Positions 252 to 26,925 of a stretch of 27,331 nt of DNA are shown here, piece after piece (the first letter of the stretch is position 1; each line of letters opens with the position of its first letter). The notes under the pieces are model-generated. The model saw only the letters and a program-made list of their open reading frames with translations, made no database searches and was not told the origin of the DNA. The position numbers and the translations under genes were made by a program. The DNA comes from a virus. Its lineage: Duplodnaviria > Caudoviricetes. The stretch is taken from positions 1 to 27,331 of IMG/VR virus record IMGVR_UViG_3300011441_000031; one strand, 5' to 3'.

Positions 252-593
252 ATGAAATGTCCAAGTTGTGACTTCATCGCCAAGTCTCCAGCCGGGCTCG
301 CAACGCACCGCCGCCTTATGGACCCGCAAGATTCGGCCGGCGGGTGCAACGTCAGGGCCGCTGACGTCACTCTAGCTGAGTTGCGGCGCATGGGCCGGCT
401 GGAGCAGATCGACGCTGCCCGGGTGCAGGCGTTGCGTTCTATTGCGGAGTCGCTGGACCTGAACCCGTTCAACTCGCAGATGTGGCGCGAGTACCGGGAG
501 GCGTTGGGGGAGTTGACCCGCGATGACTCTGACGATGACACGGTCGACGGGCTCTACGACCAGTTGTCCACCCAGGCACGCAACCCGTCGTAG
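252..593 (+). CDS. terS: Terminase small subunit with an N-terminal C2H2-like zinc finger
   Basis: 113 aa, overlaps the start of TerL; helical body with acidic tail; N-terminus CPSC...LATHRR. Confidence 0.7.
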   Translation: MKCPSCDFIAKSPAGLATHRRLMDPQDSAGGCNVRAADVTLAELRRMGRLEQIDAARVQALRSIAESLDLNPFNSQMWREYREALGELTRDDSDDDTVDGLYDQLSTQARNPS

Positions 594-3571: not shown

Positions 3572-3820
3572 GTGGCTGACACGATGGTTCTGCCCACCTA
3601 CTCGGACCGGGCGGACCGGGTAGCCCGTCACGCCGCAGAGGTGTCGCCGTCCCGCGCGGCGCGCAACATGGCGTTGTTTCTGCCGTGGCTGCTCGGGTTC
3701 ATGGTCTTCTGGTCGTGGTCATGGATCGTGTATGTGGGCAGCTGGATCGGCTTCGGCTTCCGTGAGGGCTTCGACCTGGGACGAACAGTTAAGGCGAAGC
3801 TCAGTCCGCGTGGCAGCTGA
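3572..3820 (+). CDS. Small membrane protein between TerL and portal
   Basis: GTG 3572 with GAGG 6 nt upstream; 82 aa with hydrophobic Trp-rich segment LFLPWLLGFMVFWSWSWIVYVGSWIGFG; stop overlaps the portal ATG. Confidence 0.7.
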   Translation: MADTMVLPTYSDRADRVARHAAEVSPSRAARNMALFLPWLLGFMVFWSWSWIVYVGSWIGFGFREGFDLGRTVKAKLSPRGS

Positions 3821-5316
3821 TGGACCTGTTCGGGCGGGTCGCGGCACGGCGCAGTAAGGCGCTGGAGCGCCGGCAGCGTTCGTGGCCGGTCGGTAAGGGT
3901 ACCGTCGCGCCGTGGGAGGCGTCGTGGGGCCATGACGATTCGCAGTTTTCGCCTGAATCCTACGGAGACTTTTTAGCGACTTCGAACGAGATCCACAGTG
4001 CGGCCATGCTGCGCGCACGGCTCATGTCTTCTCTGAGGCTGAATCTGTACAAGGGTTGGGACGAAGAGAAGAAGGCGATGCCGCAGCACCCGGCGGCGCA
4101 GCTGCTCAACTACGTCAATCCGCATTGGACGATGCGACGGTTAGCGCGCATGGATGAGTTGTCCATGTGTGTGTGGGGCGAGTCGTTCTGGGCGATTGAG
4201 ACGCAGCGGGGTAAGCCGACGGAGATCTGGTGGTGCAAGCCGTCGAGGATGAAGCCGGTGCCGCACGAGTCCAAGTACATTGCGGGCTGGCTGTATGAGC
4301 CGCAGTACGGCGGGCCGGTCATCCCGTTCCAGCCGGAAGAGGTCATCTGGTTCCGTTACCCCAACCCGTTGGACGAGTTCTCGGCGTTGAGTCCGGTGGT
4401 TGCGGCCCGACTGGCCGCAGAGGCCGCCAGTGCGATGATGACCAGCAACAAGGCCATGTTCGCCAACGGCCTTCAGGTGGCCGGTCTAGTAGTGCCGACC
4501 CGGCCAGATCAGGTGTTCTCCGAGGGCCAGGCCGAGGACCTGGAGGAATACCTGCGTCACAAGCTGTCCGGACCGGACAAGGCACACCGGTGGGCGGTGA
4601 TGCGCTACGAGGCCGCGTTCAAGCAGCTTTCGATCAGTCCGAAGGACGCCGAGTTCGTCAGCGGGCTTGGCCTGACGCTGCGGCAGGTGTGCAACGCCTA
4701 CGGCATCCCGGTGCCGCTGATGAACGATATGAGCTCGGCCACGCTGGCGAACGTGGGCGAGCTGACCAAAGCATTCTGGGCGCACACCTTGGTGCCGGAT
4801 TCGCAGCTACGCGCGGACGAGATTGTGGAACAGTTCCTGCCGCGTTTTGGCAAGAGCGGACCGAACTACGCCGAGTACGACTATGGCAAGGTCCCTGCCC
4901 TTCAGGAAGCTGCGTCGGAGACGTGGGCACGGGACGCGCAGCAGATGGACCGGGGCGCACTGACGATCAACGAGTGGCGGGCGAAGAACGGCATGGGGCC
5001 GGTCCCGTGGGGCGACACGGCGTGGCTGCCGCTGAACAAGGGCATGGTCACGGTCGGCGAAGACGGCGCCATCACGATCCAGCTACCGCAAGGCGCCGGC
5101 GGTCCGGACATGGCCGCGGAAGGCGACGGTACCGGCGGCGGGATTGACGAGGCCGCGGCCGACATTCTCAAGGCCATCGGCGGCCTACCAGACGACGAAC
5201 GGAACCCGGTCAACGCACCACCGGCACCACGGTTCGTGATCCCGAAACCGGCCGAGTTGGACCACATGGCCGCGCGGCGACTGCTGGCCGCGTTTGCCAC
5301 CAACGGGCACCGCTAA
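3820..5316 (+). CDS. Portal protein, HK97 family
   Basis: HPAAQLLNYVNPHWT, EEVIWFRYPNPLDEFSALSP, VCNAYGIPVPLM, GALTINEWRAKNGMGPVPWGD; position after TerL. Confidence 0.95.
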   Translation: MDLFGRVAARRSKALERRQRSWPVGKGTVAPWEASWGHDDSQFSPESYGDFLATSNEIHSAAMLRARLMSSLRLNLYKGWDEEKKAMPQHPAAQLLNYVNPHWTMRRLARMDELSMCVWGESFWAIETQRGKPTEIWWCKPSRMKPVPHESKYIAGWLYEPQYGGPVIPFQPEEVIWFRYPNPLDEFSALSPVVAARLAAEAASAMMTSNKAMFANGLQVAGLVVPTRPDQVFSEGQAEDLEEYLRHKLSGPDKAHRWAVMRYEAAFKQLSISPKDAEFVSGLGLTLRQVCNAYGIPVPLMNDMSSATLANVGELTKAFWAHTLVPDSQLRADEIVEQFLPRFGKSGPNYAEYDYGKVPALQEAASETWARDAQQMDRGALTINEWRAKNGMGPVPWGDTAWLPLNKGMVTVGEDGAITIQLPQGAGGPDMAAEGDGTGGGIDEAAADILKAIGGLPDDERNPVNAPPAPRFVIPKPAELDHMAARRLLAAFATNGHR

Positions 5317-5330
5317 GCCGGGGGGTGGTC

Positions 5331-8300
5331 ATGTCGCTGACCGCCGCAGCTGACGAGATCGACCAACTGTTCGCCGGCTTCACCCGCAAGCGTGTCCCCG
5401 GCGTGCCCGGTGATCCGGAGCACCTGAAACTCCACCCGCACAGTCCGCAGACGGGCAAGTTCGTGGAGACCCCGGACGTCGTTGCCGCGTTGGTTGATGC
5501 GATCAAGAAGAAGCTGACGGACAAGCCGGCAAAGAAGACCGCACCGAAGGCGACCAAGGCCGCCGCACCCCGTGCGCCCCGTGCGCCTAAAGCCGTCAAG
5601 GCCGCGCCGGCCAAGAAGGCCACCCCGGCGAAGGCTCCCACGAAGAAGGCGGTCTCGACCAAGAAGGCCGTATTGTCGAAGGCTCTACCCGACGGCACTG
5701 CGAAACGCGGCGATCTCGTGGTCGTTGAGACAACGGACTCGTACGCCGATGGCGGCCACCTAAACGGCGTTCCGGCGTTCCGGGTGGCGAAGGTCGTCAG
5801 TGTCACAAAAGACGGCAAGGTCAAGGCGTTCGTAACGGGAGATGACCCACCGCGGCGGGTAGAGCACCTACCGCGGGATCACAAGCTCCACGTGGTCTCG
5901 GCAGACCACATCGATGTAGATGCGGCGCTGGTGACAGCACGGGATAACCCGTGGCCGCATGCACCTGAGCACAAGGGCAAGGCATACGACTCGCTCGACG
6001 AGGTAAGGGAGGCGCTGCGCCCGCATCTGAAGGTGAAGGAGCGTGGTTCTTCACCCAAGTCGGTGCTCAGTCCGCCTACCGGCAGGTTCGAATTGGCTGA
6101 GGACCGCGGCCAAAGCGGTGACGGTAGGGCGCCGGGTGGCCAGTGGGGCCGCTACGGTGCTGCCGGTGTGCTCGTCCGGTCCACCGACGGCGACGAACCA
6201 CGGTTCCTGCTGCTGAAGACCGGCGCCTGGGTCGACGCCGGCGGTAAGTGGCAGCTTCCCGGCGGGGCGTTGGACGAGCACGAAAACCCCTACCAGGGCG
6301 TGGCGCGGGAAGCGCACGAAGAGATCGGCGTACCCGAGGACGTGGTCAAGTCCCTACGTCCGGTCGGCGAGCACGTCTACCAGCCGGACCCGGACTGGCG
6401 TTACACCACGATCGCCGCGGATGTGGATACGCCGTTTGAGGTGCGGATCGACGGCGACGAAACCACCGACGCGAAGTGGTTCACCGTAGCCGAGATTGAC
6501 CAGATGCTCGACGACGATGTGATCCAGAAGTCGCTGAAGAAGACCCTGCGCTCGATTATCGATTCGTACCCGAAGGCCAAGCCGGCCAAGAAGCCGCGCG
6601 CGCCGAAGGCCAAAGCGGCGAAGGCGGCCGGCAAGGCCGACGTTCGGGGACTCGCGGGCGTCAACGGTGGTCTTCTCGACGCGGACGCGGCGGACGGGTT
6701 CCAGCGGCGTCTTGACGGCGGCGAGTCACACAGCGCAGTGGCCGACGACATTGAGCGGTACGCCGCCAACGATGGCCTGCCTGCGCAACACGCCTGGGGC
6801 AGGATCGCGGCACGACTACGTGCCAACGACCCGAACCCGCCGGCCGCTGATGTGCAGGCGGGCCGGATTCGCCAGGCGAAGCTTGACTCGGCCCGGGAAG
6901 TCGCTGGCGTGCTCACCGAGCTGGACGAGCTACACGCCAGCAAGGCGTCACCGCGGGCGCTGGAACATCGGTTGCGGGCGCGCGCAAGGCAGGACAGTCT
7001 CCCGCAGGACATGACCGACGCGTTGATCGCGGCGGGTATCTCGGGCGATCGGAAGCAGATCGACAAGGCCATTGACCGTCTCGCCGCCGAACACGGTCTG
7101 ACCCGGATCAGTGCGCGCGCAGGCAGCGTTGAGCCGTTCGACCCGCGTACGCATGAGATGCTCGGCGACTCGACACGGGTGCCGGGCGGTGCCGTGCTAA
7201 TCGTTCGTCCCGGCTACGCGGTCGATGTGGACGGCGAGCGGGTCCAGGTGAGCCGCGCGGCGGTGCTACCGGCAACACCCGAACAGGCTGCCGCGGCCGT
7301 ACCGGTGAAGAAGGCCGTGAAGGCAGCAACCAAGACGGCAGCCAAGACGAAGGTGGAAGGCGGCGGCCGGGATCTGCTGGCGCTGGGCAGTGGGCCACTG
7401 GCTACGAAGCTGGTCAAGCAGGCCGGAGTCAGCGGGCTCGCGCCGGGGCAACGGCCACAGGGACCACACGGCGACGAGTTGTTGCACCACATCGCGTTGG
7501 AGCAAGGCTGGACCGACCGACCACGGCAGGTGGATCACGCCGAGTTTGACCGGCTGATCGCCGACGGACGGCCGGAACTGTTCCGGGGCGTGGAGACCCG
7601 CGCCGAGGTGGATCGGCTGGTCACGGGCGAGCCGTACTTCGGTGACTCGGTGTACGGGTCCGGCATCAACGCGACGTCGGACCGGCCAGATGCGTTGATG
7701 TACGGCGACCACGTGGTCCGGATGACGTTCGCGCCGGACACGCGGATTGTGGATCTGGACGAGGTGCAGGCCGACCAGGCCCGGTTCTGGTCGGCGAGGA
7801 CTCAAAGCGCCGATCAGCGGTTGGTGTTCGGCGGCGACTCCAGCCGGTTCGCCGCGGCGCGCGGTATCGACGTGATCCGGATCCGCAGGCAGGACGACGG
7901 CGAAGTGCTCGACGTTACCGAAGATCCAGCGTGGCTGGATGCGATCGCCGGCACGATGGGCTACCTTTCTGCGGCGGAACTACCCGATGGTGTCATCGCC
8001 GAGTTGCAACGCATGCGTGGCGAGCACTACTTGGTACTCAACCGGGGAGTGCTGGTGGTGGATACCGAACCGGCCGGTCTCGTAACCGCGCGCGAAGTGC
8101 CTTCCAGTCGATCCGCGCAGTCGAGCTTCACCCGCGCGGACGAGCCGCACACCGGCGCGATGGTTGCGCTCGTCCCCACCGCCGAAGACGCGAAGCGTCT
8201 TGCTGTTGACGACGGCCTGCCGGTTAATGAGCTGCACTGCACCCTGTTCTATCTTGGCGACGCCACCGACTTCCCGGCCGAGCCGCGTAAGCACCTGGTC

Positions 8301-11300
8301 GAGCTGGTCCGTGGCTACTTCACCGACGCCGTACTGGTTGAGGCCGACGGGTTCGCGCTGTCGCTGTTCAACCCGGGCGGCGACGAACCGTGCATCACGC
8401 TCGGTGTGTCCGGTGAAGGTGTTGAGAACGCGCGGCGCCGGGTGCTGGCCGCGGTCGAGGACTACGGCGCGGACCTACCCGAGCAACACCAGCCTTGGCA
8501 CGCGCATCTCACACTTGCGTACACCGATGATCTGGCCATGGTTGGTGAGTTGGTTGGCCGTACCGGGCCGGTGACCTTTGATCGGGTGCGAGTCGCGTTC
8601 GGTGGCGGATACGAGGACATCCCGCTCGGTAGCGAATCGAACGAGCCGCTGACTGACACGGACCGCGCCGCCTTCGATCTAGCTACCCGCATCGCCTCGC
8701 GGGCCGGGTTCAAGCCAAACCAGCCGCGTGACCCCGGTGGTGAGGGCGGCGGCCAGTGGATCCACATCGGCGGCAAGCTGTTCGAACTTCTTGACGGCGT
8801 CATGTCGGCGCTGCTACGTGACGACGGCACGGTAGAGCTGGCCCTTGACCCGGACGGGGACCGCCAACAGGTGCACTTCCCCGCATCCGACGGGACACTA
8901 TTGGCCGACGTGCTCGGTGATGCGGCGCACGGACCGTCCGACTTGGACGAACGCGACACGGTCAAGGTCGGCACGGACGGCGGCGACGTGTCGGTCACGT
9001 CCGGCGACGGCCGGGTAGTGCTCGGCTTCGACACCGACGACGGTCCGGCCACAGTCACCATGTCACCCGAGCAGGCCGACGAGGTCGCCGGCACACTGCG
9101 GGACTTCGCCGACCAAGCCACCCCGGCCACGGTCGCGTCGCGGGTCGTGTCCGAAGATCTGACGGTCAGCCTTGGCGCGGATGACCGGTTGCGGGTCACG
9201 TTGGGCTCGTCGGCCACCCCCGAACCGGTGGCGCTGACCGGCGCACAGGGCGTCGGGATCGTGGACGGCTTGGCCGAGTTCAAAACCTACAAGCCGACCG
9301 TCGCACCTAAGCCGAAGTGGTTCGGCAAGAAGGTCAAGCCCGACCCGAACGCCGACGATCTGGCCATTGTGGCGAGCCTGCGGGTCGACTCGACGACGGA
9401 CATGGACCTGTACGCCGACGGTTCCGTGTCGATCGCCGCACGTCTTGATGGTGGCGGTTCGACGGACGTGTACGTGCCGGCGCAGGACGTTGACGCGATG
9501 ATCGCCGCACTGAAGGAACTACTCGGCATGGCCCGAGATTGGCGCTCGCTGATCCGAGCAGGGTTTGACGTCCACCAGCCGCGCGACCCGGTAGGGCGCT
9601 GGGTCGACATGCCCCTGTCGTGGGCCGAGTTGATTGAGCGGTTCGGGGATCTGGTCGACGAACGCAACGTCGGCGACTACCACATCGGCGCCCACGAGGG
9701 CGGCCGGGTCGTGCTCAGCTTCGACGCGGACACCCCTGGTCGTCGTACGGTACTACGGGATCTCACCCCCGACGAGGCCCGCGCAGTGGGTGACGACCTA
9801 GACGAGATGGTGTTCGACGCCGCGAACGTCGAGATCGACGACGACGACCCACCGGCGAGCATGAACGATCTTGTCGACGACACCAGCACCGCGCTGCGAC
9901 CCAAGCCGATGACGGTGGGCTACGACTACACGGGCGACATTCACCTCTTCGCCGGTGATGACGATGACGCTGACGAGGTGGCGACCCTCAGCCAGGACGA
10001 GGCAACTGACCTCGCCAACGCATTGCGCGAGTCAGCGGACGGGGCTGATCTGGCCATCGAACGCCGCGACGACCGCGAAGAGGCCGAGCGCCACCGGCGG
10101 GAAAAGGAACGGGAAGCCGCCGATCTGGCCGCTGAACGAGAAGAGGACGAGCGGCTTCGACTCGAAGAGGAACGGGTGGCAGCCGGGGAGACCGAGAGGC
10201 TACGCGCCGAAGAGGAGCGTGAAGCCGCCGAAAGCTGGTGGGAGGACGTTCTCGTTCCGGTCGGTGGTAACCGGTTGGGTATGCAAAGCCCCACTGTTGT
10301 CGAGGTTGAGGACGTTGCGGGTGGTTGGGGCAGCACAACAGTTCCCGTCGAGGATCTCCCTTCGCTGGCCGCCGCGATCCGCGATCTCCGGCGGCAGAGT
10401 GACGGCCTGCCCGAGTTCGTTGGTGAGGACGAAGACGGCGAGGAGATCGGGCCCGAGGTCGTCGCCGAGCGCAAGGTGTCGGATCGCCTGACCCTGAGTC
10501 TGCTCGAAGACGGCAACATGACTCTCCTCACAACCGACCCTGACATCACATGGGAGATCTCGGTCTGGCAGGACAACGCCTCGGAGTTGGCGGATGCGTT
10601 GGAACGACTACTCGCTCGGATACGCGCTACGCCGCAACGCGGCTGGCGGGCCGGTTTCAAGCCGGGTCAGCCGCGGGTACCGTCGCACCCCGGCATGCCG
10701 AATCCGAGTGGCGGCGAGTGGGTCAAGCTGCTCTCCGGCGGGCCGCTGGAAAGCCTGCTGTCCAAGCGCGGCGTCCGGGACATCGCCAAGGCGCTGGATC
10801 TGTGGGCGTCCGGCGGTGGCGACGACAAGCCGCTGGCCGGGTTCTCCGACGGCCAACTGCGCCGGGCCGCACGGGCACAGGGGATCCCGCACGGCGGGGA
10901 TCGGGAAGCGGTGGAGGAGCGGATTCTCGACGAGGTCCGCCGGGTCGTGTCAGCGCGCCGGGCGGGGCACCGGGACCGGCCGAGCTACTCGTTCGGCCGG
11001 GGGGTGGATCGGCCGCAAGCCCGCGACCGGGACGGCCGGCTACGCGACGTCGAGATCCACCAGACGCCGGGCGGCGTGTCGGTGGTGCTGCTCGACTCCC
11101 GCGGCCAGCGCGTCTCCACCGCCGTGGCGGTGAAGGACTTCACCCAACTGCGGGCGTGGGCGAAGCGAAACAAGCTGCGCAACCTGGCCGGCTGGATCGA
11201 CAAGTACCACCCCACTACCCGCGGCGCCAAAGCACGCCGGCAGCGGCGCATCAACGAGACGGTAGACCAGCTCCGCGCGGCACTCACGTACGACGCGGCC

Positions 11301-12719
11301 CGAGCGCAACTGGACGGGATGGAACCGGCCGAGGTTACGGACATCTTCACCCAACTCGGCGGCCGGCTGGATCACCTGCCCAAGGCACCCAGCGGGCGAA
11401 TCAACCAGCGCAGCGCCATCGGCGCGCTGCTGGCCGGCTGGCCGGAGTTTGCCAGAGCGGGGGAGCTTGATCCGGGAGACGTTGCTGTTGCTGATGCGGC
11501 GGAGTTGTCCATACCCGAGCTGTTCGACGACGGGCCTGCGCAGGGGGTTCCGGCGCCGCCGGACGCGTGGGGTGGCCTGCTGGACTGGTTGGATGTGACC
11601 GACGACGAGCGGGCCCGGGACGACGGGCTCACTCGCGACGCCGCGTTCGAGGCGCTTCACCCGCGTTACAAGAAGCCTCACCCGAAGGCCGGCAAATTCA
11701 TGTCGAAGGCCGACATTGCCATGGCCATTGCCGACGCGCTCACCGGGAAAGTACACGCCGGTGAAGCGAAACCGGCAACGAAGAAGCCTGCCAGACCCCG
11801 CGTGCCCCACGCGTCGAAAGCTGTCAAGGCCACGCCGGTACCTGCAAAGAAAGCAGCGCAGGCGGCGGAAGAACGCGCCGCGGCGCGCGCCCACGTTGGG
11901 GGCATCATCGCCGAGTTGGAACGTTCTCATCCGGATCTTCGCGAAGAGGACAGGGCCGTGATTGGTGCGATCCACGCGGCCCTGGACCGGCAGGCTGAGT
12001 TGGTGCCACGTACGGTGATGCACCTGCACGGAGTGGGCTTCCTCCCCGAGAGCGGCTTCGGCTCATACCAGCCGGCTTACAACTTTGGCACGAGCCCGAT
12101 GATCCCGGATGAGAAACGGTACGGGCCCGGTCAGCAGATCTGGCTGAACCGCAAGTGGGTCACGCACCGCCGCTTCCCCGACCACGATGCGACACGGCGC
12201 TATCGCGCGGAACTCGAAGAGAAATTCGTCGAGGTGGTACGCAAGGGGTGGTTTCCGGGATCCGCAGGCGCCGATGACCCGATGACGTACGTGGTCAGTC
12301 ACGAGACGGGACACCACCTACAGCGGATGTTGGCCTTCACCGTGCCCGCCTACGGACTTGGGGGGAGGGAACACGTCGAGGAACGCTTCCGGCCGGCCGT
12401 GCTGCGTCCGTTGTTGACCGCGTTGGACACCCACATGGGCACGACGTTCATGGCGGACCTCGACTCGCGAGGCACCTATCGGGAACGGGCCGGGCTCGTA
12501 GTCTCTATGGACTACCTCGATGGCGTAGCGAAGAAACATGGCAGGAAGTTGACGAAGGATGTCTCCGGCTACGGCGGGTCGGGCAAGTTCGACGAACTGC
12601 TCGGGGAGGTCTGGGGCCGCTACAGCATGGAGGGCGACACCGCCCCGGACCCGATCCGCCAGGTCGCTATGATACTCCAGCGGCTCGCCGAACAGGCCGC
12701 GAAGAAGTGGACGCCATGA
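5331..12719 (+). CDS. Giant polyvalent protein (2462 aa): Lys/Ala/Pro linkers, Nudix, GrpE-like, ART-like, 2H phosphoesterase, acidic repeats, basic HeH-like module, C-terminal zincin
   Basis: ATG 5331 after a G-rich RBS. Nudix box GALDEHENPYQGVAREAHEEIGV (6264-6332); FDPRTHE...RPGY (7095-7265); LFRG...YGSG...VLNR (7470-8060); HCTL and HLTL (8235, 8505); HETGH (12300-12314) with VSGYG...ELLGE. Confidence 0.85.
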   Translation: MSLTAAADEIDQLFAGFTRKRVPGVPGDPEHLKLHPHSPQTGKFVETPDVVAALVDAIKKKLTDKPAKKTAPKATKAAAPRAPRAPKAVKAAPAKKATPAKAPTKKAVSTKKAVLSKALPDGTAKRGDLVVVETTDSYADGGHLNGVPAFRVAKVVSVTKDGKVKAFVTGDDPPRRVEHLPRDHKLHVVSADHIDVDAALVTARDNPWPHAPEHKGKAYDSLDEVREALRPHLKVKERGSSPKSVLSPPTGRFELAEDRGQSGDGRAPGGQWGRYGAAGVLVRSTDGDEPRFLLLKTGAWVDAGGKWQLPGGALDEHENPYQGVAREAHEEIGVPEDVVKSLRPVGEHVYQPDPDWRYTTIAADVDTPFEVRIDGDETTDAKWFTVAEIDQMLDDDVIQKSLKKTLRSIIDSYPKAKPAKKPRAPKAKAAKAAGKADVRGLAGVNGGLLDADAADGFQRRLDGGESHSAVADDIERYAANDGLPAQHAWGRIAARLRANDPNPPAADVQAGRIRQAKLDSAREVAGVLTELDELHASKASPRALEHRLRARARQDSLPQDMTDALIAAGISGDRKQIDKAIDRLAAEHGLTRISARAGSVEPFDPRTHEMLGDSTRVPGGAVLIVRPGYAVDVDGERVQVSRAAVLPATPEQAAAAVPVKKAVKAATKTAAKTKVEGGGRDLLALGSGPLATKLVKQAGVSGLAPGQRPQGPHGDELLHHIALEQGWTDRPRQVDHAEFDRLIADGRPELFRGVETRAEVDRLVTGEPYFGDSVYGSGINATSDRPDALMYGDHVVRMTFAPDTRIVDLDEVQADQARFWSARTQSADQRLVFGGDSSRFAAARGIDVIRIRRQDDGEVLDVTEDPAWLDAIAGTMGYLSAAELPDGVIAELQRMRGEHYLVLNRGVLVVDTEPAGLVTAREVPSSRSAQSSFTRADEPHTGAMVALVPTAEDAKRLAVDDGLPVNELHCTLFYLGDATDFPAEPRKHLVELVRGYFTDAVLVEADGFALSLFNPGGDEPCITLGVSGEGVENARRRVLAAVEDYGADLPEQHQPWHAHLTLAYTDDLAMVGELVGRTGPVTFDRVRVAFGGGYEDIPLGSESNEPLTDTDRAAFDLATRIASRAGFKPNQPRDPGGEGGGQWIHIGGKLFELLDGVMSALLRDDGTVELALDPDGDRQQVHFPASDGTLLADVLGDAAHGPSDLDERDTVKVGTDGGDVSVTSGDGRVVLGFDTDDGPATVTMSPEQADEVAGTLRDFADQATPATVASRVVSEDLTVSLGADDRLRVTLGSSATPEPVALTGAQGVGIVDGLAEFKTYKPTVAPKPKWFGKKVKPDPNADDLAIVASLRVDSTTDMDLYADGSVSIAARLDGGGSTDVYVPAQDVDAMIAALKELLGMARDWRSLIRAGFDVHQPRDPVGRWVDMPLSWAELIERFGDLVDERNVGDYHIGAHEGGRVVLSFDADTPGRRTVLRDLTPDEARAVGDDLDEMVFDAANVEIDDDDPPASMNDLVDDTSTALRPKPMTVGYDYTGDIHLFAGDDDDADEVATLSQDEATDLANALRESADGADLAIERRDDREEAERHRREKEREAADLAAEREEDERLRLEEERVAAGETERLRAEEEREAAESWWEDVLVPVGGNRLGMQSPTVVEVEDVAGGWGSTTVPVEDLPSLAAAIRDLRRQSDGLPEFVGEDEDGEEIGPEVVAERKVSDRLTLSLLEDGNMTLLTTDPDITWEISVWQDNASELADALERLLARIRATPQRGWRAGFKPGQPRVPSHPGMPNPSGGEWVKLLSGGPLESLLSKRGVRDIAKALDLWASGGGDDKPLAGFSDGQLRRAARAQGIPHGGDREAVEERILDEVRRVVSARRAGHRDRPSYSFGRGVDRPQARDRDGRLRDVEIHQTPGGVSVVLLDSRGQRVSTAVAVKDFTQLRAWAKRNKLRNLAGWIDKYHPTTRGAKARRQRRINETVDQLRAALTYDAARAQLDGMEPAEVTDIFTQLGGRLDHLPKAPSGRINQRSAIGALLAGWPEFARAGELDPGDVAVADAAELSIPELFDDGPAQGVPAPPDAWGGLLDWLDVTDDERARDDGLTRDAAFEALHPRYKKPHPKAGKFMSKADIAMAIADALTGKVHAGEAKPATKKPARPRVPHASKAVKATPVPAKKAAQAAEERAAARAHVGGIIAELERSHPDLREEDRAVIGAIHAALDRQAELVPRTVMHLHGVGFLPESGFGSYQPAYNFGTSPMIPDEKRYGPGQQIWLNRKWVTHRRFPDHDATRRYRAELEEKFVEVVRKGWFPGSAGADDPMTYVVSHETGHHLQRMLAFTVPAYGLGGREHVEERFRPAVLRPLLTALDTHMGTTFMADLDSRGTYRERAGLVVSMDYLDGVAKKHGRKLTKDVSGYGGSGKFDELLGEVWGRYSMEGDTAPDPIRQVAMILQRLAEQAAKKWTP
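11706..11752 (+). repeat. Direct repeat B, copy 1 (copy 2 at 13228-13274)
   Basis: 47 nt with 1 mismatch, encoding KADIAMxIADALTGKV, in frame in both genes; weaker similarity extends over 11658-11785 / 13180-13306. Confidence 0.9.
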
Positions 12720-12997
12720 CCACCACCGGCCCGTACCTGTGTCTGGCGTGCACCAGACCAGCCGGGATGCGCGACGACACCTGCACGGCGTACCCCGATG
12801 GCATACCCAGGGAGATACTCGCTGGTGGAGACCATCGGGGACCGCGGGGCGACGAACGTAACGGGCTGGTGTTCATGAAGCGGGGCGACCCGTCGGCGGA
12901 TATGGTGTTCGCCGCCTGGCGGTCTTTGGCCGGCGGCGAAGGGCCACGATCGTCATCTGCGGAGGTACCGCCAGTTGAACAAGGTGCCGCTTCGTGA
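12716..12997 (+). CDS. Small Cys/His protein, putative partner or immunity protein of the upstream zincin
   Basis: ATGA overlap with the giant gene; CLAC...CTAYPDGIPREILAGGDH pattern, a type I associate with phage head-associated metallopeptidase genes. Function inferred. Confidence 0.7.
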   Translation: MTTTGPYLCLACTRPAGMRDDTCTAYPDGIPREILAGGDHRGPRGDERNGLVFMKRGDPSADMVFAAWRSLAGGEGPRSSSAEVPPVEQGAAS

Positions 12998-13140
12998 CCA
13001 CCACCGTCTTGTACTCACCTAACGACGGTGTTGGGGGTTGGGCGTCAACTTTGGCCCAAACCGCCGACGATGAGGTGCAAGACGTGTCGGTCCGGGCGCT
13101 GCTCGACGGGATCGACGTGGTACTTGGACTCGCCGATGGG
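12994..13140 (+). repeat. Direct repeat A, copy 1 (copy 2 at 15892-16038)
   Basis: 147 nt, 15 mismatches counted by hand (10 synonymous); encodes a 49-aa N-terminal leader, 45/49 identical. Confidence 0.95.
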
Positions 13141-14268
13141 GCGAGTTTCGTACGCGGCGCCGTTTTCGATCCCGCTAAGCATCCGCGCTACCCGAAAGGC
13201 CACCCCAAGGGCGGCAAGTTCATGACCAAGGCCGACATTGCCATGACCATTGCCGACGCGCTCACCGGGAAAGTGGCTGCCGGCGAGGTAAAACCTGCGA
13301 AGAAGCCGCGCGTGCCCCGTGCGCCGAAGGCCGCCAAGGCAGCATCGGCCAAGGCACCGGCGAAGAAGGTTGCCACACCGGCCGAGACGCTACCACGCCG
13401 CCGGCCGAAAGGGCCCAAGAAGGCCAAGAGGCCTAAGGGCGGCACCGAAGTGCCGGCCGCGGCGAAGGCGTACCACCGCAACCTTGACGGCGTCGAAGAC
13501 CTCGCCGAGCACGTCGAGTCCGGATCAATCCGCGATCGGCGGATACCACTGACCAGTAGTGGAGCGTCGGGCGCGACAGTCGAACGGGTTGAGTTCGCTG
13601 ACGGGTCCATGGCAGTAGCCAAAACATATGCCGGTTTTGAGCCGTCACGGTTCACCGTCAAACATCAGGCCGACGCCGAGCACCTGTCGTCCTTGCTGGC
13701 ACGGGCGTTGGGCGTCTCGTCGCCTGGCGTGTACCGTCGCGAGTTCGGCGAGACGTGGCAAGAGTACGTTCCGCACCCGTCAGCGGATGAGGTACGGATG
13801 TCCCTGATGGGCGACGTAGACGAAGTAGAACGGCTTTATCGCCGGGCGAGTCGATCAGATGCCGGGCGTCGGCTTGGGCTGCTCGACCTCATGACACTCA
13901 ACTTCGATCGACACGAGGGCAACTGGCTTGTCGGTGATCACGGCCGGCCGGTGGCCATTGATCACCAGTTTTCGTTCGATCCGGACTTGGTCGACCGCGA
14001 AGCCTTCGCGTACGCAGCTGTCCGTAGTCCGTTCACCGACCGGTATATGGACCGTACGTTTGGCCCGATCGGCGCAAACGGCCTGAACGCGTACGAGTGG
14101 AACGAAAGCAATCCGCTCACGCGAGACGATGTGGACGAGTTGCGCCGTCGGCTGGAGGCGTTGAGGCCGGACTTCGCCCACCGCGGTCGGGAGAACTGGC
14201 TCAACTACGCGCTCCGGATACTCGACGCGTTGGAGCCCCACGCACGCGGGAAGAGGTCGATCTTGTGA
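12994..14268 (+). CDS. Leader + HPR motif + basic linker + HipA/PI3-PI4-kinase-like domain
   Basis: GTGA overlap; Gly-rich loop SSGASG, AVAK, DAEHL, catalytic NFDRHEGNWL (13906-13923), metal-binding AIDHQFSF. Confidence 0.85.
   Translation: MTTTVLYSPNDGVGGWASTLAQTADDEVQDVSVRALLDGIDVVLGLADGASFVRGAVFDPAKHPRYPKGHPKGGKFMTKADIAMTIADALTGKVAAGEVKPAKKPRVPRAPKAAKAASAKAPAKKVATPAETLPRRRPKGPKKAKRPKGGTEVPAAAKAYHRNLDGVEDLAEHVESGSIRDRRIPLTSSGASGATVERVEFADGSMAVAKTYAGFEPSRFTVKHQADAEHLSSLLARALGVSSPGVYRREFGETWQEYVPHPSADEVRMSLMGDVDEVERLYRRASRSDAGRRLGLLDLMTLNFDRHEGNWLVGDHGRPVAIDHQFSFDPDLVDREAFAYAAVRSPFTDRYMDRTFGPIGANGLNAYEWNESNPLTRDDVDELRRRLEALRPDFAHRGRENWLNYALRILDALEPHARGKRSIL
13228..13274 (+). repeat. Direct repeat B, copy 2
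   Basis: 46/47 identical to 11706-11752. Confidence 0.9.
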
Positions 14269-15734
14269 AGACCCTTGCCGTGGTCAGTGTTGACACCGAC
14301 ACCGAAGTATCTCGGATCGTCCTGTCCGACGACGGCGCGGTTACCTACTCGGGCGGCGGCTCGGGTAAAGGCGTACACCAGCAAGCGATGCGGGTCGGTG
14401 GTCTCGGCGCGGTCGAAGCGTTCGACCTGCTGGCCGAGCAGGGGTGGTCCAACGGCAAGCTGCGAATCGTCGAGGCCCCACTCGACGACGAACGGGCGTG
14501 GTGGTCGGCCTTCGAGCGCGAGCTGAGCGGTGCGGATCTGGCCGACTTCAACGCCAAGCATCCGCGTGGTCTGGGCGGGAAGTTCGCCAAGAAGCTCGCG
14601 GAGAGCATCGCCGAAGCACTCGGCGATATGGTCGATGCGGGCAAGGCCAAGCCGCCGCGGAAACCGCGTGCACCGAAGGCGAAGAAGACCGCTAAGGGCT
14701 TGGACGAGGTACACACTGAGGCGGACCTACACGCACTCACTGTGGTGCAGCTGCGCGAGTTGGCCAAGTTGCGTGGTGTCAAAGTGCCGGCGCGAGCGTC
14801 ACGGGCCGAACTGGTCGACGCACTGAAGCCACCACCGCCGAAACCAACCCCGCTTCCGACGCTGACAGGTCGCCACCACACGTGGTGGCTTGACCGTGGC
14901 GACACCGAACCTGACCGGCCGGTTCCGGTACGGGACTTGCAGATCGGCGAGGGTCGTGACGGCACACCCGTCGTCATCCGCAGCGGGTCGCTGCATCGGC
15001 GCGGCGGAGTGGTGGTACTGGTCGACCACGACGGCTTGAGCGACATGGTGTCCGAGGACAAAGTGGTGCGGGAGTTCTTCGATCAACACCGCGAGTTCGA
15101 AACCGCAACGTCGCAAGCCGGCAAATACCAGCGCGGCTACGCCTGGGTTGCGCAGTCCAACCCGGACGACGCCTACTTCGCAACCAGCTACGGCCTGCCC
15201 GACATGGTCTCTTTCGCCACCGCCGGTAACGGGACCACGACGGTGTGGGGTCAACGAGATCCCGTCTTCGGGCCGGGCGGCCACCGGTACATACTGCGGC
15301 ACGAATTCGGCCACAACGTCGGTAGGGGTGTGCTCGCACAATCAGGGTTGGCGCAACTACACGACGGATCTGTGGCGTGGGCCGCTGCGGCGCGGCACGA
15401 CGGCGCAGGCTACCGGCTCAGTAGCGTGGACGACTACGAGGCTTGGGGTGGACTTCCGAAGCCTGAGCTTTACCCCGATCCCTACCGCCAGTTTCCCGAC
15501 GGCGTGACGGACTACGGCCGGAGCAGCCAAGCCGAGGACTTCGCCGAGTCGGTGATGCTGTACCTAAATGAGCAGCGGATCGGCAACGGTCGCCTGGCGC
15601 CGGGAGCGCCGTGGACCGCAATCTATTTCCGGGATCTCTTCCCGGCGCGGGCCGCGCTGCTGGACCGGATCTTCCCCGACGTGGCAGTCAGACAGCAGAA
15701 CCTGCGTCGGTCACTGACGGACGCTCGATCGTGA
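14265..15734 (+). CDS. Small WSNG domain + HPR motif + Rho-N/HeH-like domain + anthrax-lethal-factor-like zincin
   Basis: GTG 14265 overlaps the kinase stop, GAGG RBS at 14253-14256. LTVVQLRELAKLRGVKVPARASRAELVDAL; NPDDAYFA; HEFGH (15300-15314); VTDYGRSSQAEDFAE; FPARAALL. Confidence 0.85.
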   Translation: MKTLAVVSVDTDTEVSRIVLSDDGAVTYSGGGSGKGVHQQAMRVGGLGAVEAFDLLAEQGWSNGKLRIVEAPLDDERAWWSAFERELSGADLADFNAKHPRGLGGKFAKKLAESIAEALGDMVDAGKAKPPRKPRAPKAKKTAKGLDEVHTEADLHALTVVQLRELAKLRGVKVPARASRAELVDALKPPPPKPTPLPTLTGRHHTWWLDRGDTEPDRPVPVRDLQIGEGRDGTPVVIRSGSLHRRGGVVVLVDHDGLSDMVSEDKVVREFFDQHREFETATSQAGKYQRGYAWVAQSNPDDAYFATSYGLPDMVSFATAGNGTTTVWGQRDPVFGPGGHRYILRHEFGHNVGRGVLAQSGLAQLHDGSVAWAAAARHDGAGYRLSSVDDYEAWGGLPKPELYPDPYRQFPDGVTDYGRSSQAEDFAESVMLYLNEQRIGNGRLAPGAPWTAIYFRDLFPARAALLDRIFPDVAVRQQNLRRSLTDARS

Positions 15735-15861
15735 ACATCGTTGACGTCGTCTGGCCGTCCGCGTCGGCTTCTACGATCTCGCCACGTACCGCCTTGTCAC
15801 GGTCGTCGGTGACCTTGCCGTCGGCGTCAACGAGGATCAGCGTCCCTGTGGGTTCGGTCAT
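15688..15861 (-). CDS. Small acidic protein (57 aa), putative immunity partner of the adjacent zincin; the only credible minus-strand gene
   Basis: MTEPTGTLILVDADGKVTDDRDKAVRGEIVEADADGQTTSTMF; fills the gap between two + genes; internal DADG duplication; typical high-GC codon use on the minus strand. Confidence 0.65.
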   Translation of the reverse strand: MTEPTGTLILVDADGKVTDDRDKAVRGEIVEADADGQTTSTMFTIERPSVTDAGSAV

Positions 15862-15891
15862 GCCTACCAGTGTCCCACGGGAGGCGACCAC

Positions 15892-16038
15892 GTGACCACC
15901 ACCGTCTTGTACTCACCTAACGACGGCGTTGGGGGATGGGCGTCAGCTCTGGCCCAAACCCTCAACGACGAGGTGCAAGACGCGTCAGTACGGGCGCTGC
16001 TCGACGGGATCGACGTGGTACTTGGGCTCGCGGACGGC
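15892..16038 (+). repeat. Direct repeat A, copy 2
   Basis: About 90% identical to 12994-13140. Confidence 0.95.
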
Positions 16039-16785
16039 TTCACCCGCGACGAAGCGGAATCCGACGGCGAGGACATGGTCCGCTACGTGCGAGACCTGCT
16101 GGCCCGCGTAGACATCCACCCCGGCGGCGAAGAGCTTCACCACTGGTGGACCAAGACACCCGAAGGACTCGCCGAATGGGCTGTTGGCCACGCACACCCG
16201 TGGACCACGTTGTACGAAAAACTGCTAGCCCACATGAACGGCAACGAGCTGCTGGCTAAGAAAACCGCGAGCGCTTGGTACATCGAGGTCTTTCATCACA
16301 CCCCGAACCAAAAGCACGGCCGGGCCGGTTTCAAGAAGGACCAGCTACGAGATCCGCTCACCGGCGAGTGGATTGATGCGCCGCATGGGACCATGAACGA
16401 CGTGGCCAAGTGGCTTGAGGGCCTTACGGCCGATGACGTCGAGCGAGCCGTCTCGGCCCGACACCCCGCCGTTCAGCTATCCGTCGCACGCACGGGCGGT
16501 GGGGATCTAAGACTCAGTCTGATCCGTACCTCGCCGGACAGGCGGGGCGAGGGCAAGGCAAAAGCGGCGATGGCGGACCTACTCGACGCCGCTGACCATC
16601 TAGGCGTGAGGATGACCTTGACGGCCGAGCCACTAGCGGGCGACGAAACGACCAGCAAGTCTCGCCTCGTTGGTTGGTACAAGTCGCTCGGGTTTGTCGA
16701 AAACAAGGGTCGTCATAAGGACTACGGACTCAGCGACGCCATGTATCGCGAGCCTCGGCCAAGGACCGCGAACCCGACGACCTAA
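15892..16785 (+). CDS. Leader + Trp/His-rich small domain + motif + GNAT acetyltransferase
   Basis: GGAGG RBS before the GTG; acetyl-CoA motif A RRGEGKA; MTLTAEP; motif B RLVGWYKSLGF. Confidence 0.85.
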   Translation: MTTTVLYSPNDGVGGWASALAQTLNDEVQDASVRALLDGIDVVLGLADGFTRDEAESDGEDMVRYVRDLLARVDIHPGGEELHHWWTKTPEGLAEWAVGHAHPWTTLYEKLLAHMNGNELLAKKTASAWYIEVFHHTPNQKHGRAGFKKDQLRDPLTGEWIDAPHGTMNDVAKWLEGLTADDVERAVSARHPAVQLSVARTGGGDLRLSLIRTSPDRRGEGKAKAAMADLLDAADHLGVRMTLTAEPLAGDETTSKSRLVGWYKSLGFVENKGRHKDYGLSDAMYREPRPRTANPTT

Positions 16786-16854
16786 CGTCACGGGGAAGAT
16801 TGCGGGCGTCCCCGAAGGAACGCCCGCCCATACCTGACCCCACCGTAAACCGTC

Positions 16855-16883
16855 AACCCCGTCGTCTTGCTCGACGGGGTTTT
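16855..16883 (+). terminator. Putative intrinsic terminator after the accessory block
   Basis: AACCCCGTCG-7 nt-CGACGGGGTT followed by a short T run; a second hairpin lies at 16802-16827. Confidence 0.55.
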
Positions 16884-16886
16884 ATC

Positions 16887-17612
16887 ATGCCCGGAGTTGT
16901 CTCGGCCGTGACGCAGGTTGCCGAAGTTCAGATGTGCAAGACGTGCAATGAGCTCAAACCGGTCGGGCGCTTTAGTGTCAAGGGTGGCCGGTGGGTGCAC
17001 CGGACCTGCAAGGACTGCTGTAATCGCCAAGCGTCCGAGCGTCGTAGATCGTCCGAAGGAAGGAAAGAGCGCCTACTCGAACTCCGGCGTTACCGCGAGA
17101 CCGATAGAGGCCGAGAAGTACACGAGGCCGCTAGGCGCAAGTACGCCGCGAAACGGTTGGCCGAGGGACCGAGCATTACGCGTGACAGTCGGGTCTGTAG
17201 TCGTTGCCGATGTCACTTGCCAATCGAGCTGTTTACGGCGAACCGGTCCTCAGCCGATGGTCATGACAGTTATTGCAAGCACTGCCGGCTAGAGGTCAAC
17301 CGGGAGTACCGGGCTAGGCATCCGGAGCGCATCCGTGAGCGGGTCCGGGCCAAGATGCTGAAGGCGAACTACGGCCTGACGCCGGCCGCGTACGACGTGA
17401 TGCTCGCAGACCAAGGCGGCCAATGTGCCGTTTGTGGCGCAACGGACCCACGCACCCAGGCGGGCGTGTTCTGCGTCGACCACTGCCACACGACGGGAGT
17501 TGTACGGGGCCTGCTGTGCAGTGCCTGCAACAGCGGCCTTGGCCACTTCAGTGATGACCCAGATGTCCTTCGTGCGGCAGCCAGTTACATCGAAGCCGCC
17601 CGCAGTCGCTGA
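16887..17612 (+). CDS. Endonuclease VII-family His-Me nuclease with N-terminal zinc ribbons (probable homing endonuclease)
   Basis: YGLT...MLADQGGQCAVC...VDHCHTTGVVRGLLCSACNSGLGHFSDD. Start uncertain. Confidence 0.9.
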   Translation: MPGVVSAVTQVAEVQMCKTCNELKPVGRFSVKGGRWVHRTCKDCCNRQASERRRSSEGRKERLLELRRYRETDRGREVHEAARRKYAAKRLAEGPSITRDSRVCSRCRCHLPIELFTANRSSADGHDSYCKHCRLEVNREYRARHPERIRERVRAKMLKANYGLTPAAYDVMLADQGGQCAVCGATDPRTQAGVFCVDHCHTTGVVRGLLCSACNSGLGHFSDDPDVLRAAASYIEAARSR

Positions 17613-17675: not shown

Positions 17676-18887
17676 ATGCAACCGACAGCAAATCCAGTAC
17701 CGCAGTTCACCAGGGCATTCGTGGAGGCGGGAGGAAATCGTCTCGCCGACCTACCGGCCGGCGCAGCCATATCGTTCGTGGCGTCGACTTCTGGACTTAA
17801 GCGTGACGGTCTAAGTCTGCGCGCGAGTGGTTGGCGGGTGGACAACTTCCACCGGGCCGGCGGGCCGGTGTTGTGGTGCCATGATCATCAACGTCCGCCG
17901 ATCGGCAAAGCTGCCGCGACGACCGGCACGCACCTTAGAGCGAGCGTGTCCTTCGACCAAGAAGACGAGTTCGCCCGCGCCGTTGAATCCAAGATCAAAA
18001 GGGGCTATTTGGGTGCCTGCTCTGTGGGGTGGGACTTCGTCGATTCATCCGGTAGTCGGCTCGACCACAACCGGCACTCCCCTTCGTGGCTGGCCGAAAA
18101 CAGTCTCTATGACCTGACGGAAGTCTCGATAGTCCCCATCGGCGCCGATCCATTGGCCATGGCCGAACGCCAACGCCGCGCGCTCGGCACGCTCGGCCGG
18201 GAACTGGTCCAGCTCTACGACGACCAGGAACGGGCCGACTCCGACGTCACCGCAGATGAACTGTTTCCCGCCGTCGTCGAGTGGTGCCGCCGCCACGGCG
18301 TGGACCTGGGCGAGTACGCCGACCTGTCCAACGTGCGGCAGTGGGGCGACGGCGAAGACGGCGAGGGAACCGAGGCCGAGCCGGCACGCAACACCCGCGG
18401 CGCCATCCCATCCCACAAGAACACATCCACTGACATGGACGGTGCGTGGGACGCCGACGCCGAACTAGCCAAGGCCGACGGTGCTGCGCAACTCATGCGC
18501 ATGCATGCCTGGCGCGACTACGACGGCGAGCCGGACGCCAAGTCGACCTACAAATTGCCGCACCACCACGCCGACGGAACCCTGTCGTGGCGCGGTGTCG
18601 CCGCAGCCATGGGCCGGCTCAGCCAGACCGACATCAGCGACGAAGACAAGGCCGGCGTGTACCGCCACCTGACGGCGCATTACCGCCAACTCGGCAAGGA
18701 CGAACCCGACCTGCGCGCCACCCTGTCCGGCTACATCCGCGCCGCCGACCTGGAACTCACCCGTTCGGCTACCGAACCCACCAACGACCCGGCATCGGCC
18801 GGGGAAAACGTCCCACCCGCATCCGCGGGCGTGGATCACCAAGCTGCGCGGTTAGTCCTCGCGGCGTTCGCTCTAAAGGAGAAATAG
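17676..18887 (+). CDS. Prohead (capsid maturation) protease, HK97/S78 type, with C-terminal accessory domain
   Basis: FVAST, PVLWCHD (His), PPIGK, GACSVGW (Ser), LTEVSIVPIGADP (Glu); directly upstream of the capsid gene. Confidence 0.92.
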   Translation: MQPTANPVPQFTRAFVEAGGNRLADLPAGAAISFVASTSGLKRDGLSLRASGWRVDNFHRAGGPVLWCHDHQRPPIGKAAATTGTHLRASVSFDQEDEFARAVESKIKRGYLGACSVGWDFVDSSGSRLDHNRHSPSWLAENSLYDLTEVSIVPIGADPLAMAERQRRALGTLGRELVQLYDDQERADSDVTADELFPAVVEWCRRHGVDLGEYADLSNVRQWGDGEDGEGTEAEPARNTRGAIPSHKNTSTDMDGAWDADAELAKADGAAQLMRMHAWRDYDGEPDAKSTYKLPHHHADGTLSWRGVAAAMGRLSQTDISDEDKAGVYRHLTAHYRQLGKDEPDLRATLSGYIRAADLELTRSATEPTNDPASAGENVPPASAGVDHQAARLVLAAFALKEK

Positions 18888-20375
18888 ATGAGCGACACAA
18901 CGACGCTCACCCGCGAGGACTTCGATGTTGTCGCGACCGAGATTCGGGGCAAGCTCGACGCGCTTGACACCGGCCAGCAGGAAGCGCTGTCCGACGTACG
19001 GCTCAACGAGCTGATCCGCACCAACCTGGAGACCTTCCTGGCATCCGAGGGTGCCGGCGAGATCGTCCGCAAGATGCGATTCTCTGCACCGGCAACCGAG
19101 CTGGTCGGCACCAAGTACGCCCGGCTCGGGCTCGACGTGGCCGACGTCGAGATGCTGCACGACATCCTTCAGTCCGCACAGATCGCGCGGATCTCGCGCG
19201 GTCCGTCCGAGGAACTGACCCGCACCTTCGAGGCTATTTCGGCCGGCCGGTACTGGTCGACCGCGATGGCCCGGGCCGAGGACGAACGCCATCTCACCGA
19301 GATGCGGCGCGCCGGGCGGCTCGACAATGTCGGGTACGAGCGGGCACTTCGTGCGATGGACACTGCGGAGACCGGCTACGGCCTTCAGCTGATCGGCGCC
19401 CAGTACGTCGGCGACCTGTGGGAGTCCGCACGCAAGGACTCGCGCATCTTCAGCCTGCTCGACTCGATCGAGCTGACCGAGGCCACCACCTACATCCCGG
19501 TCGAGGCGGACCTGCCCGAGATGCTGTTCGTGGGTGAGTCAACGTCGTCCACGGCGTCGGACTACACCACGAGCCCGGTCGGATCGAACCGCGTCCAGAT
19601 GACACCATCGAAGTTCATCATTCACATGATGTACTCGGGCGAAATGGAGGAGGATTCGATCATCCCCTATCTGCCTTATCTGCGTCGGCAGGCCGGGCTG
19701 TCCATGCAGCACTACTCCGATTCCGCCGTCCTCAATGGAGACACCACCAACGCCGGCACCGGCAACATCAACCTCGACGACGCCGACCCGGCCGACTCGA
19801 AGCATTACCTGGCTTTCGATGGTCTCCGTCACGCCTGGATCGTGGACAACACCAACAACAAGATCGACGCCGGCGGAGCAGTCTCGCTCGACCTGCTCCG
19901 CCGGCTCCCGGGCCTGATGGTGGACGACACCTACCTGATGGACTGGGGTCACCCAGCCATCGCCAGCGATCTGGTGTACATCTCCGACCCGCGCACCGCG
20001 GACCGGATCGCGCTCCTGGACGAACTGGTGACGGTCGATAAGTACGGTAGTAACGCAACCGTACTCACCGGCGAGGTCGCGCGCATCGGCATGAACCCGC
20101 TGATCGTCTCGATGGCCATGAGCCGCACCGAGGCCGACGGCAAGCTGTCCACCACCGGATCGAACAACGTGAAAGGCCAGGTCATGGCCTTCAACAAGCG
20201 GGGGTACAAGGCAGGCTGGCGCAGGCGAGTTGTCATGGAATCTGAACGTTTGCCCGGCCGTGACCAGACAAGGTTGATCTGGTCGCTTAGGCTCGGTTTT
20301 GCCCGATTCACCCCAACCGGTTCCGCCTCGGCGATTGAGAGTGCTGCCGGTCTATACGATATTCTGCTCCCCTGA
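18888..20375 (+). CDS. Major capsid protein, HK97 fold, with N-terminal delta domain
   Basis: AAGGAG RBS; helical first ~155 aa, then ALR/AMDTAETGYG; SGEMEEDSIIP; AVLNGD; FDGLR. Confidence 0.92.
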   Translation: MSDTTTLTREDFDVVATEIRGKLDALDTGQQEALSDVRLNELIRTNLETFLASEGAGEIVRKMRFSAPATELVGTKYARLGLDVADVEMLHDILQSAQIARISRGPSEELTRTFEAISAGRYWSTAMARAEDERHLTEMRRAGRLDNVGYERALRAMDTAETGYGLQLIGAQYVGDLWESARKDSRIFSLLDSIELTEATTYIPVEADLPEMLFVGESTSSTASDYTTSPVGSNRVQMTPSKFIIHMMYSGEMEEDSIIPYLPYLRRQAGLSMQHYSDSAVLNGDTTNAGTGNINLDDADPADSKHYLAFDGLRHAWIVDNTNNKIDAGGAVSLDLLRRLPGLMVDDTYLMDWGHPAIASDLVYISDPRTADRIALLDELVTVDKYGSNATVLTGEVARIGMNPLIVSMAMSRTEADGKLSTTGSNNVKGQVMAFNKRGYKAGWRRRVVMESERLPGRDQTRLIWSLRLGFARFTPTGSASAIESAAGLYDILLP

Positions 20376-20400: not shown

Positions 20401-20467
20401 TAGAATTGAGGCGTAGACATAGGTGGCCCCAGCGATGCTCGCGGCATCCTGGGGCCTGGCCGGGAGG
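20401..20467 (+). promoter_or_regulatory. Candidate promoter and leader hairpin of the HNH gene
   Basis: TAGAAT at 20401-20406; hairpin 20425-20456 (GGCCCCAG/CTGGGGCC plus GATGC/GCATC); GGAGG at 20463-20467. Confidence 0.45.
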
Positions 20468-20476
20468 AACCCCGAC

Positions 20477-26871: not shown

Positions 26872-26925
26872 GCCTTCGCGCTGGCATCTCGGTCTCATCA
26901 TAGACCGACATGCCAGCGCGAAGGC
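26872..26925 (+). repeat. Long hairpin before the tail assembly chaperone
   Basis: 16-bp perfect stem (26872-26887/26910-26925), C-C mismatch, 7-bp stem, 6-nt loop; no U tract. Confidence 0.9.

Follow-up and report, generated by a model that had tools for sequence, protein, structure and literature searches.

What is the function of a short peptide motif that recurs at the joints of the cargo proteins encoded in a phage head operon? The question is raised by a stretch of 27,331 nucleotides from a tailed virus (Caudoviricetes; record IMGVR_UViG_3300011441_000031), here called the window. With a GC content of 62–70%, the window covers a phage head-tail operon whose head part is actinophage-like; the host is probably actinobacterial, since two homologues of the capsid protein bear names from Micromonosporaceae bins. 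It encodes a terminase with a LAGLIDADG intein (523–3408), an HK97-type portal (3820..5316, + strand), an HK97-type prohead protease of the Peptidase_S78 family (17676..18887, +) and a major capsid protein (18888..20375, +). An Endo VII gene (16800–17612) and an HNH gene (20423–21595) are inserted in the operon, and a near-perfect inverted repeat of 24 nt with a 6-nt loop (26872–26925) lies between tail genes.

Four cargo genes, all on the + strand, are placed between the gene for the portal and that for the protease. The first (5325..12719) encodes a polyprotein of 2464 aa with a Nudix domain (6159–6512) and a 2H phosphoesterase domain (8127–8633), both above the Pfam cut-off, and a zincin-like HExxH motif (12300–12314). 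The second (12994..14268) is kinase-like (PF00454, E 4e-5, under the cut-off), and its leader is 90% alike over 147 nt to that of the fourth gene. The third (14265..15734) likely starts at 14265, overlapping the upstream stop codon, and encodes a small helical element and a HExxH motif (15300–15314). The fourth (15892..16785) joins a phrog_6439-like element, a copy of the motif and a GNAT-like domain (phrog_10691, E 2e-22; the Pfam GNAT match is weak). The phrog_6439 element, small and Trp/His-rich (16126–16323), recurs without the motif in other head operons (L002, at the C-terminus, L033, L063 and L071). Acidic modules at 8760–10600 consist of about seven tandem beta-strand and helix repeats, which may resemble PC4/SsgA-like folds; no family and no homologue was found for them. 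Homologues of cargo residues 1120–1620 among shorter proteins were likewise sought and none was found, and an ESM Atlas search with two cargo segments gave no usable match. A weak Diphtheria_T Pfam match (E 0.015) was taken as chance. The cargo cassette is accessory in its lineage because tagged cargo is absent or rare in related loci: none was found in 70 capsid-related loci, many of them short, apart from two incidental matches, and one of 26 protease-related loci carries it. In the closest relative, whose capsid is 75% identical, a ClpP-like gene takes its place.

The original prediction was that eight copies of the motif, hereafter the tag, mark the starts of cargo modules. Seven strict copies are present, with the first aromatic residue at 8709, 9564, 10656, 11646, 13165, 14547 and 16330, and no further match to the pattern was found in the six frames of the window. 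Shuffled proteins gave 0.004 matches on average and at most one (2000 shuffles), a null that is post hoc because the pattern was derived from the finding. The eighth copy (5424..5462, +), near the N-terminus of the 2464-aa polyprotein and 12 residues past an F-T-R site (5379), is degenerate, having neither the aromatic nor the Arg. Judged from its sequence, it is nevertheless a paralogue of the others, because it shares a downstream helix and a Lys/Ala-rich tail with the copies at 11646, 13165 and 14547. Two more degenerate and weak tag-like stretches lie upstream of the Nudix domain (6069..6146, +).

The eight copies, all on the + strand, fall into two subfamilies of four. The Gln-type tags are each preceded by R-A-G: those at 8709..8759 and 10656..10721 have a long loop, that at 9564..9602 is nearest to the family consensus and is modelled as a small hairpin, and that at 16330..16371, in which the core reads QLRD, heads the GNAT-like module. 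The other His-type tags are found at 11646..11699 (preceded by L-T-R-D-A-A, heading the zincin-like module), at 13165..13221 (preceded by F-V-R, heading the kinase-like module) and at 14547..14585 (10 residues past F-E-R, heading the module with the HExxH motif). Each of the four His-type tags is succeeded by a Lys/Ala-rich, histone-like tail. By an independent 18-position profile, the copies at 9564, 13165 and 14547 rank first to third in the window and that at 8709 sixth; those at 10656, 11646 and 16330, with longer loops or QLRD, fall outside its top 25. Both variants recur elsewhere, eight-residue loops in 44 of 702 copies and DQLRD in 12 of 150 proteins.

The tag belongs to a large family with the pattern [FWY]-x(3-4)-[HQ]P-[RH]D-xx-G-[RKQE]-[FW], followed by a Gly-rich linker; once variants are included, the invariant core is [RH]-D-x-x-G-[RKQE]-[FW]. 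A profile built from 115 sequences recovered the family widely, with 4,737 protein clusters at E ≤ 0.001 and 842 at 1e-10. The best match is a protein of 7,334 residues with 22 tag stretches, the maximum per protein. Exact DNA patterns for HPRDxxGRF and QPRDxxGRW occur in viral contigs at about 370 and about 400 stretches, respectively (estimates from the matches listed), and a complete scan with a scrambled control pattern gave 66 matches against the ~370. Among the matches listed, an aromatic residue that was not part of the query occupies position −5 in the His-type (69 of 103) and position −4 in the Gln-type (59 of 104), against a background of 6.3% (215 de-duplicated of 250 matches listed, 29 in short ORFs being dropped). 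Gly makes up 28% of the eight residues after the tag, compared with 9%, and the median spacing between tags is 256 residues. Hosts belong to at least 8 bacterial phyla among the first 80 of 128 genome loci, and gp13 of the archaeal virus HHTV-1 has a full tag, its gene lying between the terminase and MuF genes.

An AlphaFold2 model of the tag is a small hairpin with an Arg-Trp bridge (pLDDT 88 over residues 11–20, pTM 0.32). Foldseek with the 33-residue tag model gave no match at E ≤ 0.001, a PHROGs search with 57 tag peptides returned only tag-containing families (best E 6e-4), and none of three tblastn queries of cultured phages yielded an informative match. The PDB sequence search with the tag profile gave one weak match only (E 0.04), the baseplate hub gp113 of phage 7-7-1 (PDB 9RKU; L282:3903-5267), in which a QPRD..GRF core and Gly linker form an inserted loop with no upstream aromatic; the accessible part of PMC12796354 does not mention the motif in gp113. 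A QPRD..GRW core without the aromatic occurs in acidic proteins of 250–370 residues (L157, L181, L186, L081 and similar), which are possibly scaffolds, one having a weak 'virion structural' PHROG match. The same core without the aromatic is also found in neck-like proteins (L358, L382). In L193 and related alphaproteobacterial loci, tagged cargo genes are followed by small genes, which suggests toxin-immunity-like pairs in prophage head operons.

If the tag marks module starts, it should avoid the interior of domains, and this is what was found: none of 77 tags lies inside a Pfam domain stretch, where 10.2 were expected (18 polyproteins with Pfam hits among 30 scanned), and no Pfam family covers the tags themselves in these 30 polyproteins. 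Domains of the GNAT, ART and Zeta-like types mostly begin about 20–85 residues from a tag, and MuF, LPD1, InPase and ART-PolyVal domains are present in other tagged polyproteins. Not every module is tagged, however. MuF, InPase and 2H domains mostly have no preceding tag, and in the window the 2H domain is preceded by an F-T-R-A site only. Thus, the position at module starts is borne out statistically, but the window is not tagged throughout.

Tagged loci are also enriched in head operons, less securely so. A portal gene lies within 8 kb of 15 of 23 sampled motif loci and of 4 of 20 control loci (p 0.005), in a test limited to ORFs of at least 280 residues and the first 420 residues of each, with motif loci drawn from 58 full-length ones and controls from 21, one duplicate being dropped. 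Without four out-of-frame matches the count is 13 of 19, and with one lineage collapsed it is 7 of 13, at which p rises to 0.065. The portals near tagged loci belong to four PHROG families.

The residues before the tag carry a second signal. Within a protein, the residues at −1 to −4 agree among copies at frequencies of 0.54, 0.42, 0.27 and 0.20, against 0.19, 0.12, 0.09 and 0.08 (147 polyproteins), and agreement is near background from −7 outward. It holds unchanged in the pairs with unrelated flanks, which are 1151 of 1314. In 33 multi-copy contigs, the −1 and −2 residues agree within the genome (p 0.0007 and 0.0013). The dominant residue before the tag in 140 proteins is Lys (75), Asp (9), Glu (9), Asn (5), Arg (4) or Gln (1), and is mixed in 37. 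Its class tracks the protease clade (0.59 versus 0.31, p 1e-4, in 27 loci with shared ancestry not removed); for example, Lys is found in 15 of 16 copies in one clade, Asp in 4 of 4 in another, and Asn in 6 of 9 in a third. In the window, Arg is found at −2 to −4 of 6 of the 7 strict copies, compared with 24 of 86 other Phe residues (p 0.0025). The motif [FY]-x-R-A is common to the N-terminus of the window protease (F-T-R-A at 17706) and to the capsid protein, whose predicted maturation region reads Y-E-R-A-x-R-A-M-D-T (19335–19364); there Tyr150 is conserved in 73 of 76, Arg152 in 58, Arg155 in 52 and Ala156 in 75. By sequence statistics, cargo joints, capsid protein and protease share a genome-specific P1–P4 motif, the mark of a prohead-protease substrate.

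Because the one to four residues before the tag are shared within a protein and vary between phages with the protease clade, the protease of each phage likely cuts just before the tag; the tag would therefore stay on the product. The original prediction had the tag exposed by cleavage, and the footprint of such a site supports this, but cleavage is not required, since 41 of 250 matches listed lie within 16 residues of a start codon and in cluster H mycobacteriophages the tag stands at a natural N-terminus. In 114 complete ORFs among the matches listed, 55 tags fall within the first 60 residues, where 16.6 were expected.

An amphipathic helix of the type A-R-x-[LV]-L-x-A-F is distinct from the tag. 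It ends the portal and the protease in the window (5260–5295 and 18834–18869) and in a relative, and it precedes F-x-R sites in cargo leaders of the window (5352–5381, 13090–13116, 14490–14519 and 15988–16014) and of L002; it also occurs in L506. By analogy, this helix is a likelier candidate for the packaging signal than the tag. In 2013, Duda and colleagues reportedly described a C-terminal encapsidation tail of the HK97 protease. That tail is likely the counterpart of the helix on portal and protease tails and cargo leaders, and is distinct from the tag motif.

Based on these observations, the following mechanism is proposed. Cargo genes between portal and protease encode proteins with tags between domains, each followed by a Gly-rich or Lys/Ala-rich linker, as is seen in the sequence. 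The precursors would, fairly probably, enter the prohead by means of the separate helix (A-R-x-L-L-x-A-F type), which is also on the portal and protease tails. Very probably, the protease would then cut at sites of the [FY]-x-R/A type, so that 0–4 residues would separate the tag from the N-terminus thus created (R|A or RA|). The partner of the tag may then be DNA, the sole component common to all carrier viruses, a step to which we give somewhat less than an even chance. DNA is proposed because the tag does not vary with the portal, the capsid, the protease or the domain of the host: one tag is found with four portal families, several protease clades, at least 8 bacterial host phyla and an archaeal virus. 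Our best guess, held tentatively, is that the tag binds packaged DNA, so that a freed enzyme would be kept in the head and carried out with the genome.

A core of the form R-D-x-K-G-R-F also heads DUF5681/terminase-type and HNH/NUMOD nuclease proteins. Among 51 core-bearing proteins, a set from which six near-duplicates were dropped and whose search pattern selects for the terminase/nuclease family, Pfam hits were to DUF5681 (14), homing nucleases (9) and a gp3-type family (1), with 23 of the 25 proteins with hits so accounted for. The arms of DUF5681 (PF18932) and NUMOD/HNH proteins share the R-D-x-x-G-R-F core with the tag; in contrast to it, they are basic, continue with x-K-G and G-N-P/G-R-P, and mostly lack the upstream aromatic-x-[HQ]P (17.5% aromatic). 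No DUF5681 Pfam match was found in tagged cargo. These arms presumably bind DNA, an assumption that here draws on two terminase fusions and the nuclease domains.

Several observations count against the proposed mechanism. The net charge of the tag (core ±7 residues) is −1.6 on average and positive in 14% of 672, in a sample whose query profile was seeded with acidic copies, whereas the terminase/nuclease-type core has +3.5. Gln or Glu takes the second basic position in 64 of 646 copies. T4 ejects CTS-GFP fusions without a retained tag, according to the accessible part of PMC9026906, and proteins whose tag is naturally N-terminal must reach the prohead by some route, one that the tag could provide. 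Protease clade and cargo also share ancestry. Virion evidence was found for no tag-bearing protein; only a tag-swapped orthologue, Patience gp18, has it.

Alternatively, the tag may dock on a protein surface in the head, such as the inner capsid face or the portal, much as cargo-loading peptides of encapsulins do, retaining the modules and placing them for ejection. The conserved positions (Asp, Gly, Phe/Trp, Pro) look structural and aromatic, the tag has an acidic net charge, and a small hairpin is predicted; that each released module has one tag, and that the tag also stands at natural N-termini, fits as well. Yet the same tag accompanies the four portal families and unrelated capsids, that of the archaeal virus included, without drifting to match them, whereas the cut site beside it changes along with the protease. 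We regard docking as unlikely, though likelier than the other rivals. Of the roles originally offered (ejection, DNA tethering, packaging), DNA tethering is narrowly preferred over an ejection signal that docks on protein. That the tag is purely a packaging signal, which recruits precursors into the prohead and does nothing once the head has matured, is improbable. In its favour are the natural N-terminal copies and, as described below, the exchange of the tag on a virion protein for a different N-terminal tag that several proteins share. However, in contrast to the T4 CTS, the tag comes after the predicted cut, as many as 22 copies in one chain would be redundant for packaging, and the separate helix, which precedes cut sites and ends the portal and protease, is the better candidate.

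Slightly more improbable still is that the tag serves the protease as a prime-side recognition element (exosite), or caps the new N-terminus against proteolysis. Most internal copies do lie 0–4 residues past a predicted cut; however, the cut motif occurs with no tag beside it in the capsid protein, the protease and the 2H module, the tag stays constant while P1 varies among K, R, D, E, N and A, and natural N-terminal copies have no site. Most copies had been said to differ at the DNA level with selection on the peptide; conservation of the peptide across phyla and domains agrees with this, although those at 11646 and 13165 have duplicated recently (80% over 126 nt) and the Gln-type copies are 71–77% alike over 35 nt. 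Such DNA identity of 70–80% could point to a recombination scar or a neutral linker for module shuffling, but this is very improbable given the peptide conservation, the unqueried aromatic and the scarcity of scrambled matches.

Returning to DNA tethering, a natural tag swap is seen between cluster H mycobacteriophages and phage Patience. In cluster H, the tag is found at the natural N-terminus of a basic protein, Predator gp14, and a variant stands at the natural start of Barnyard gp16 and DrLupo gp18. The 'head maturation protease' label on the Predator gp14 family (phrog_12708) is doubtful, because these proteins are very basic and headed by the tag. Patience gp18 is an orthologue of Predator gp14 (50% identity, E 1e-50) in which a strongly basic helix, common to seven virion proteins (gp11-15, gp17 and gp18), takes the place of the tag. 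All seven are particle proteins in the accessible part of PMC4324244, with 233 spectra for gp18 (Table S1); the 30-min spectral counts given there do not separate injected from adsorbed proteins. The basic-helix tag (L471:6881-11075, L469:6149-7016, L472, L473), which swaps with the QPR tag on orthologues, also stands at the N-terminus of cluster H proteins between portal and MuF, and Predator carries both tags. It was not found in 150 polyproteins. It is carried by Patience gp15, for which a role in outer decoration or as a minor coat protein has been proposed (PMC7150772, as far as accessible).

More tentatively still, tailed viruses of bacteria and archaea may share a portable DNA-hitchhiking tag of 13–20 residues that is retained and interchangeable with the basic-helix tag. 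Together with a packaging helix and a genome-specific cut site, it would be the third part of a code that turns any enzyme into an injected effector. If so, the injected arsenal and protease specificity of thousands of phages could be read from sequence, and the tag could be a delivery handle for reporter proteins. Except in a few model phages, it is an open question how head-internal proteins stay in the capsid once it has matured and how they exit together with the genome; a short tag that is both shared and retained brings this question within reach of tests in cultured viruses (Predator, Barnyard, Patience, Gilgamesh, Hendrix and HHTV-1). Whether or not its partner is known, the tag shows where modules join and where cuts are predicted in thousands of unannotated polyproteins, and therefore lists candidate injected counter-defence enzymes.

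The cargo of the window resembles polyvalent proteins (Iyer et al. 2017, PMC5512222), large multidomain proteins encoded in portal-terminase head operons and predicted to be packaged and injected. Domains described in polyvalent and other head-packaged fusions include zincin-like peptidase, kinase, GNAT, 2H, Nudix, ART, InPase and MuF (PMC5512222, PMC9503650), with Nudix/2H/ART fusions in PMC9503650. The 2464-aa protein likewise joins conflict-type domains (Nudix and 2H above cut-off, and the HExxH motif) and is likewise encoded in such an operon; none of the named LPD/MuF/PBECR domains is found in the window cargo. The accessible parts of these two papers describe neither a repeated joint motif nor prohead-protease cutting at joints. 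No description of the motif, six literal spellings included, was found in a full-text literature search in which subscription journals were thinly covered, and the supplements of PMC5512222 may name it.

Closer in mechanism are the T4 proteins IPI-III and Alt, whose capsid targeting sequence (CTS) is cut by gp21 (PMC9026906), and the SPN3US gp245 substrates, head-internal cargo matured by the prohead protease (PMC10052503). As far as the accessible parts of these sources go, both systems have head-internal cargo that is matured by a protease at a short genome-wide motif, as is predicted for the window, and the T4 and SPN3US cargo is ejected. The T4 CTS, however, is a removed propeptide, found only in T4-like phages and on separate small proteins. 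In contrast, the tag of the window lies on the retained side, C-terminal of the predicted sites, is repeated in polyproteins and is common to unrelated viruses; it is a widespread, apparently unnamed element of a known kind of system, protease-matured head cargo.
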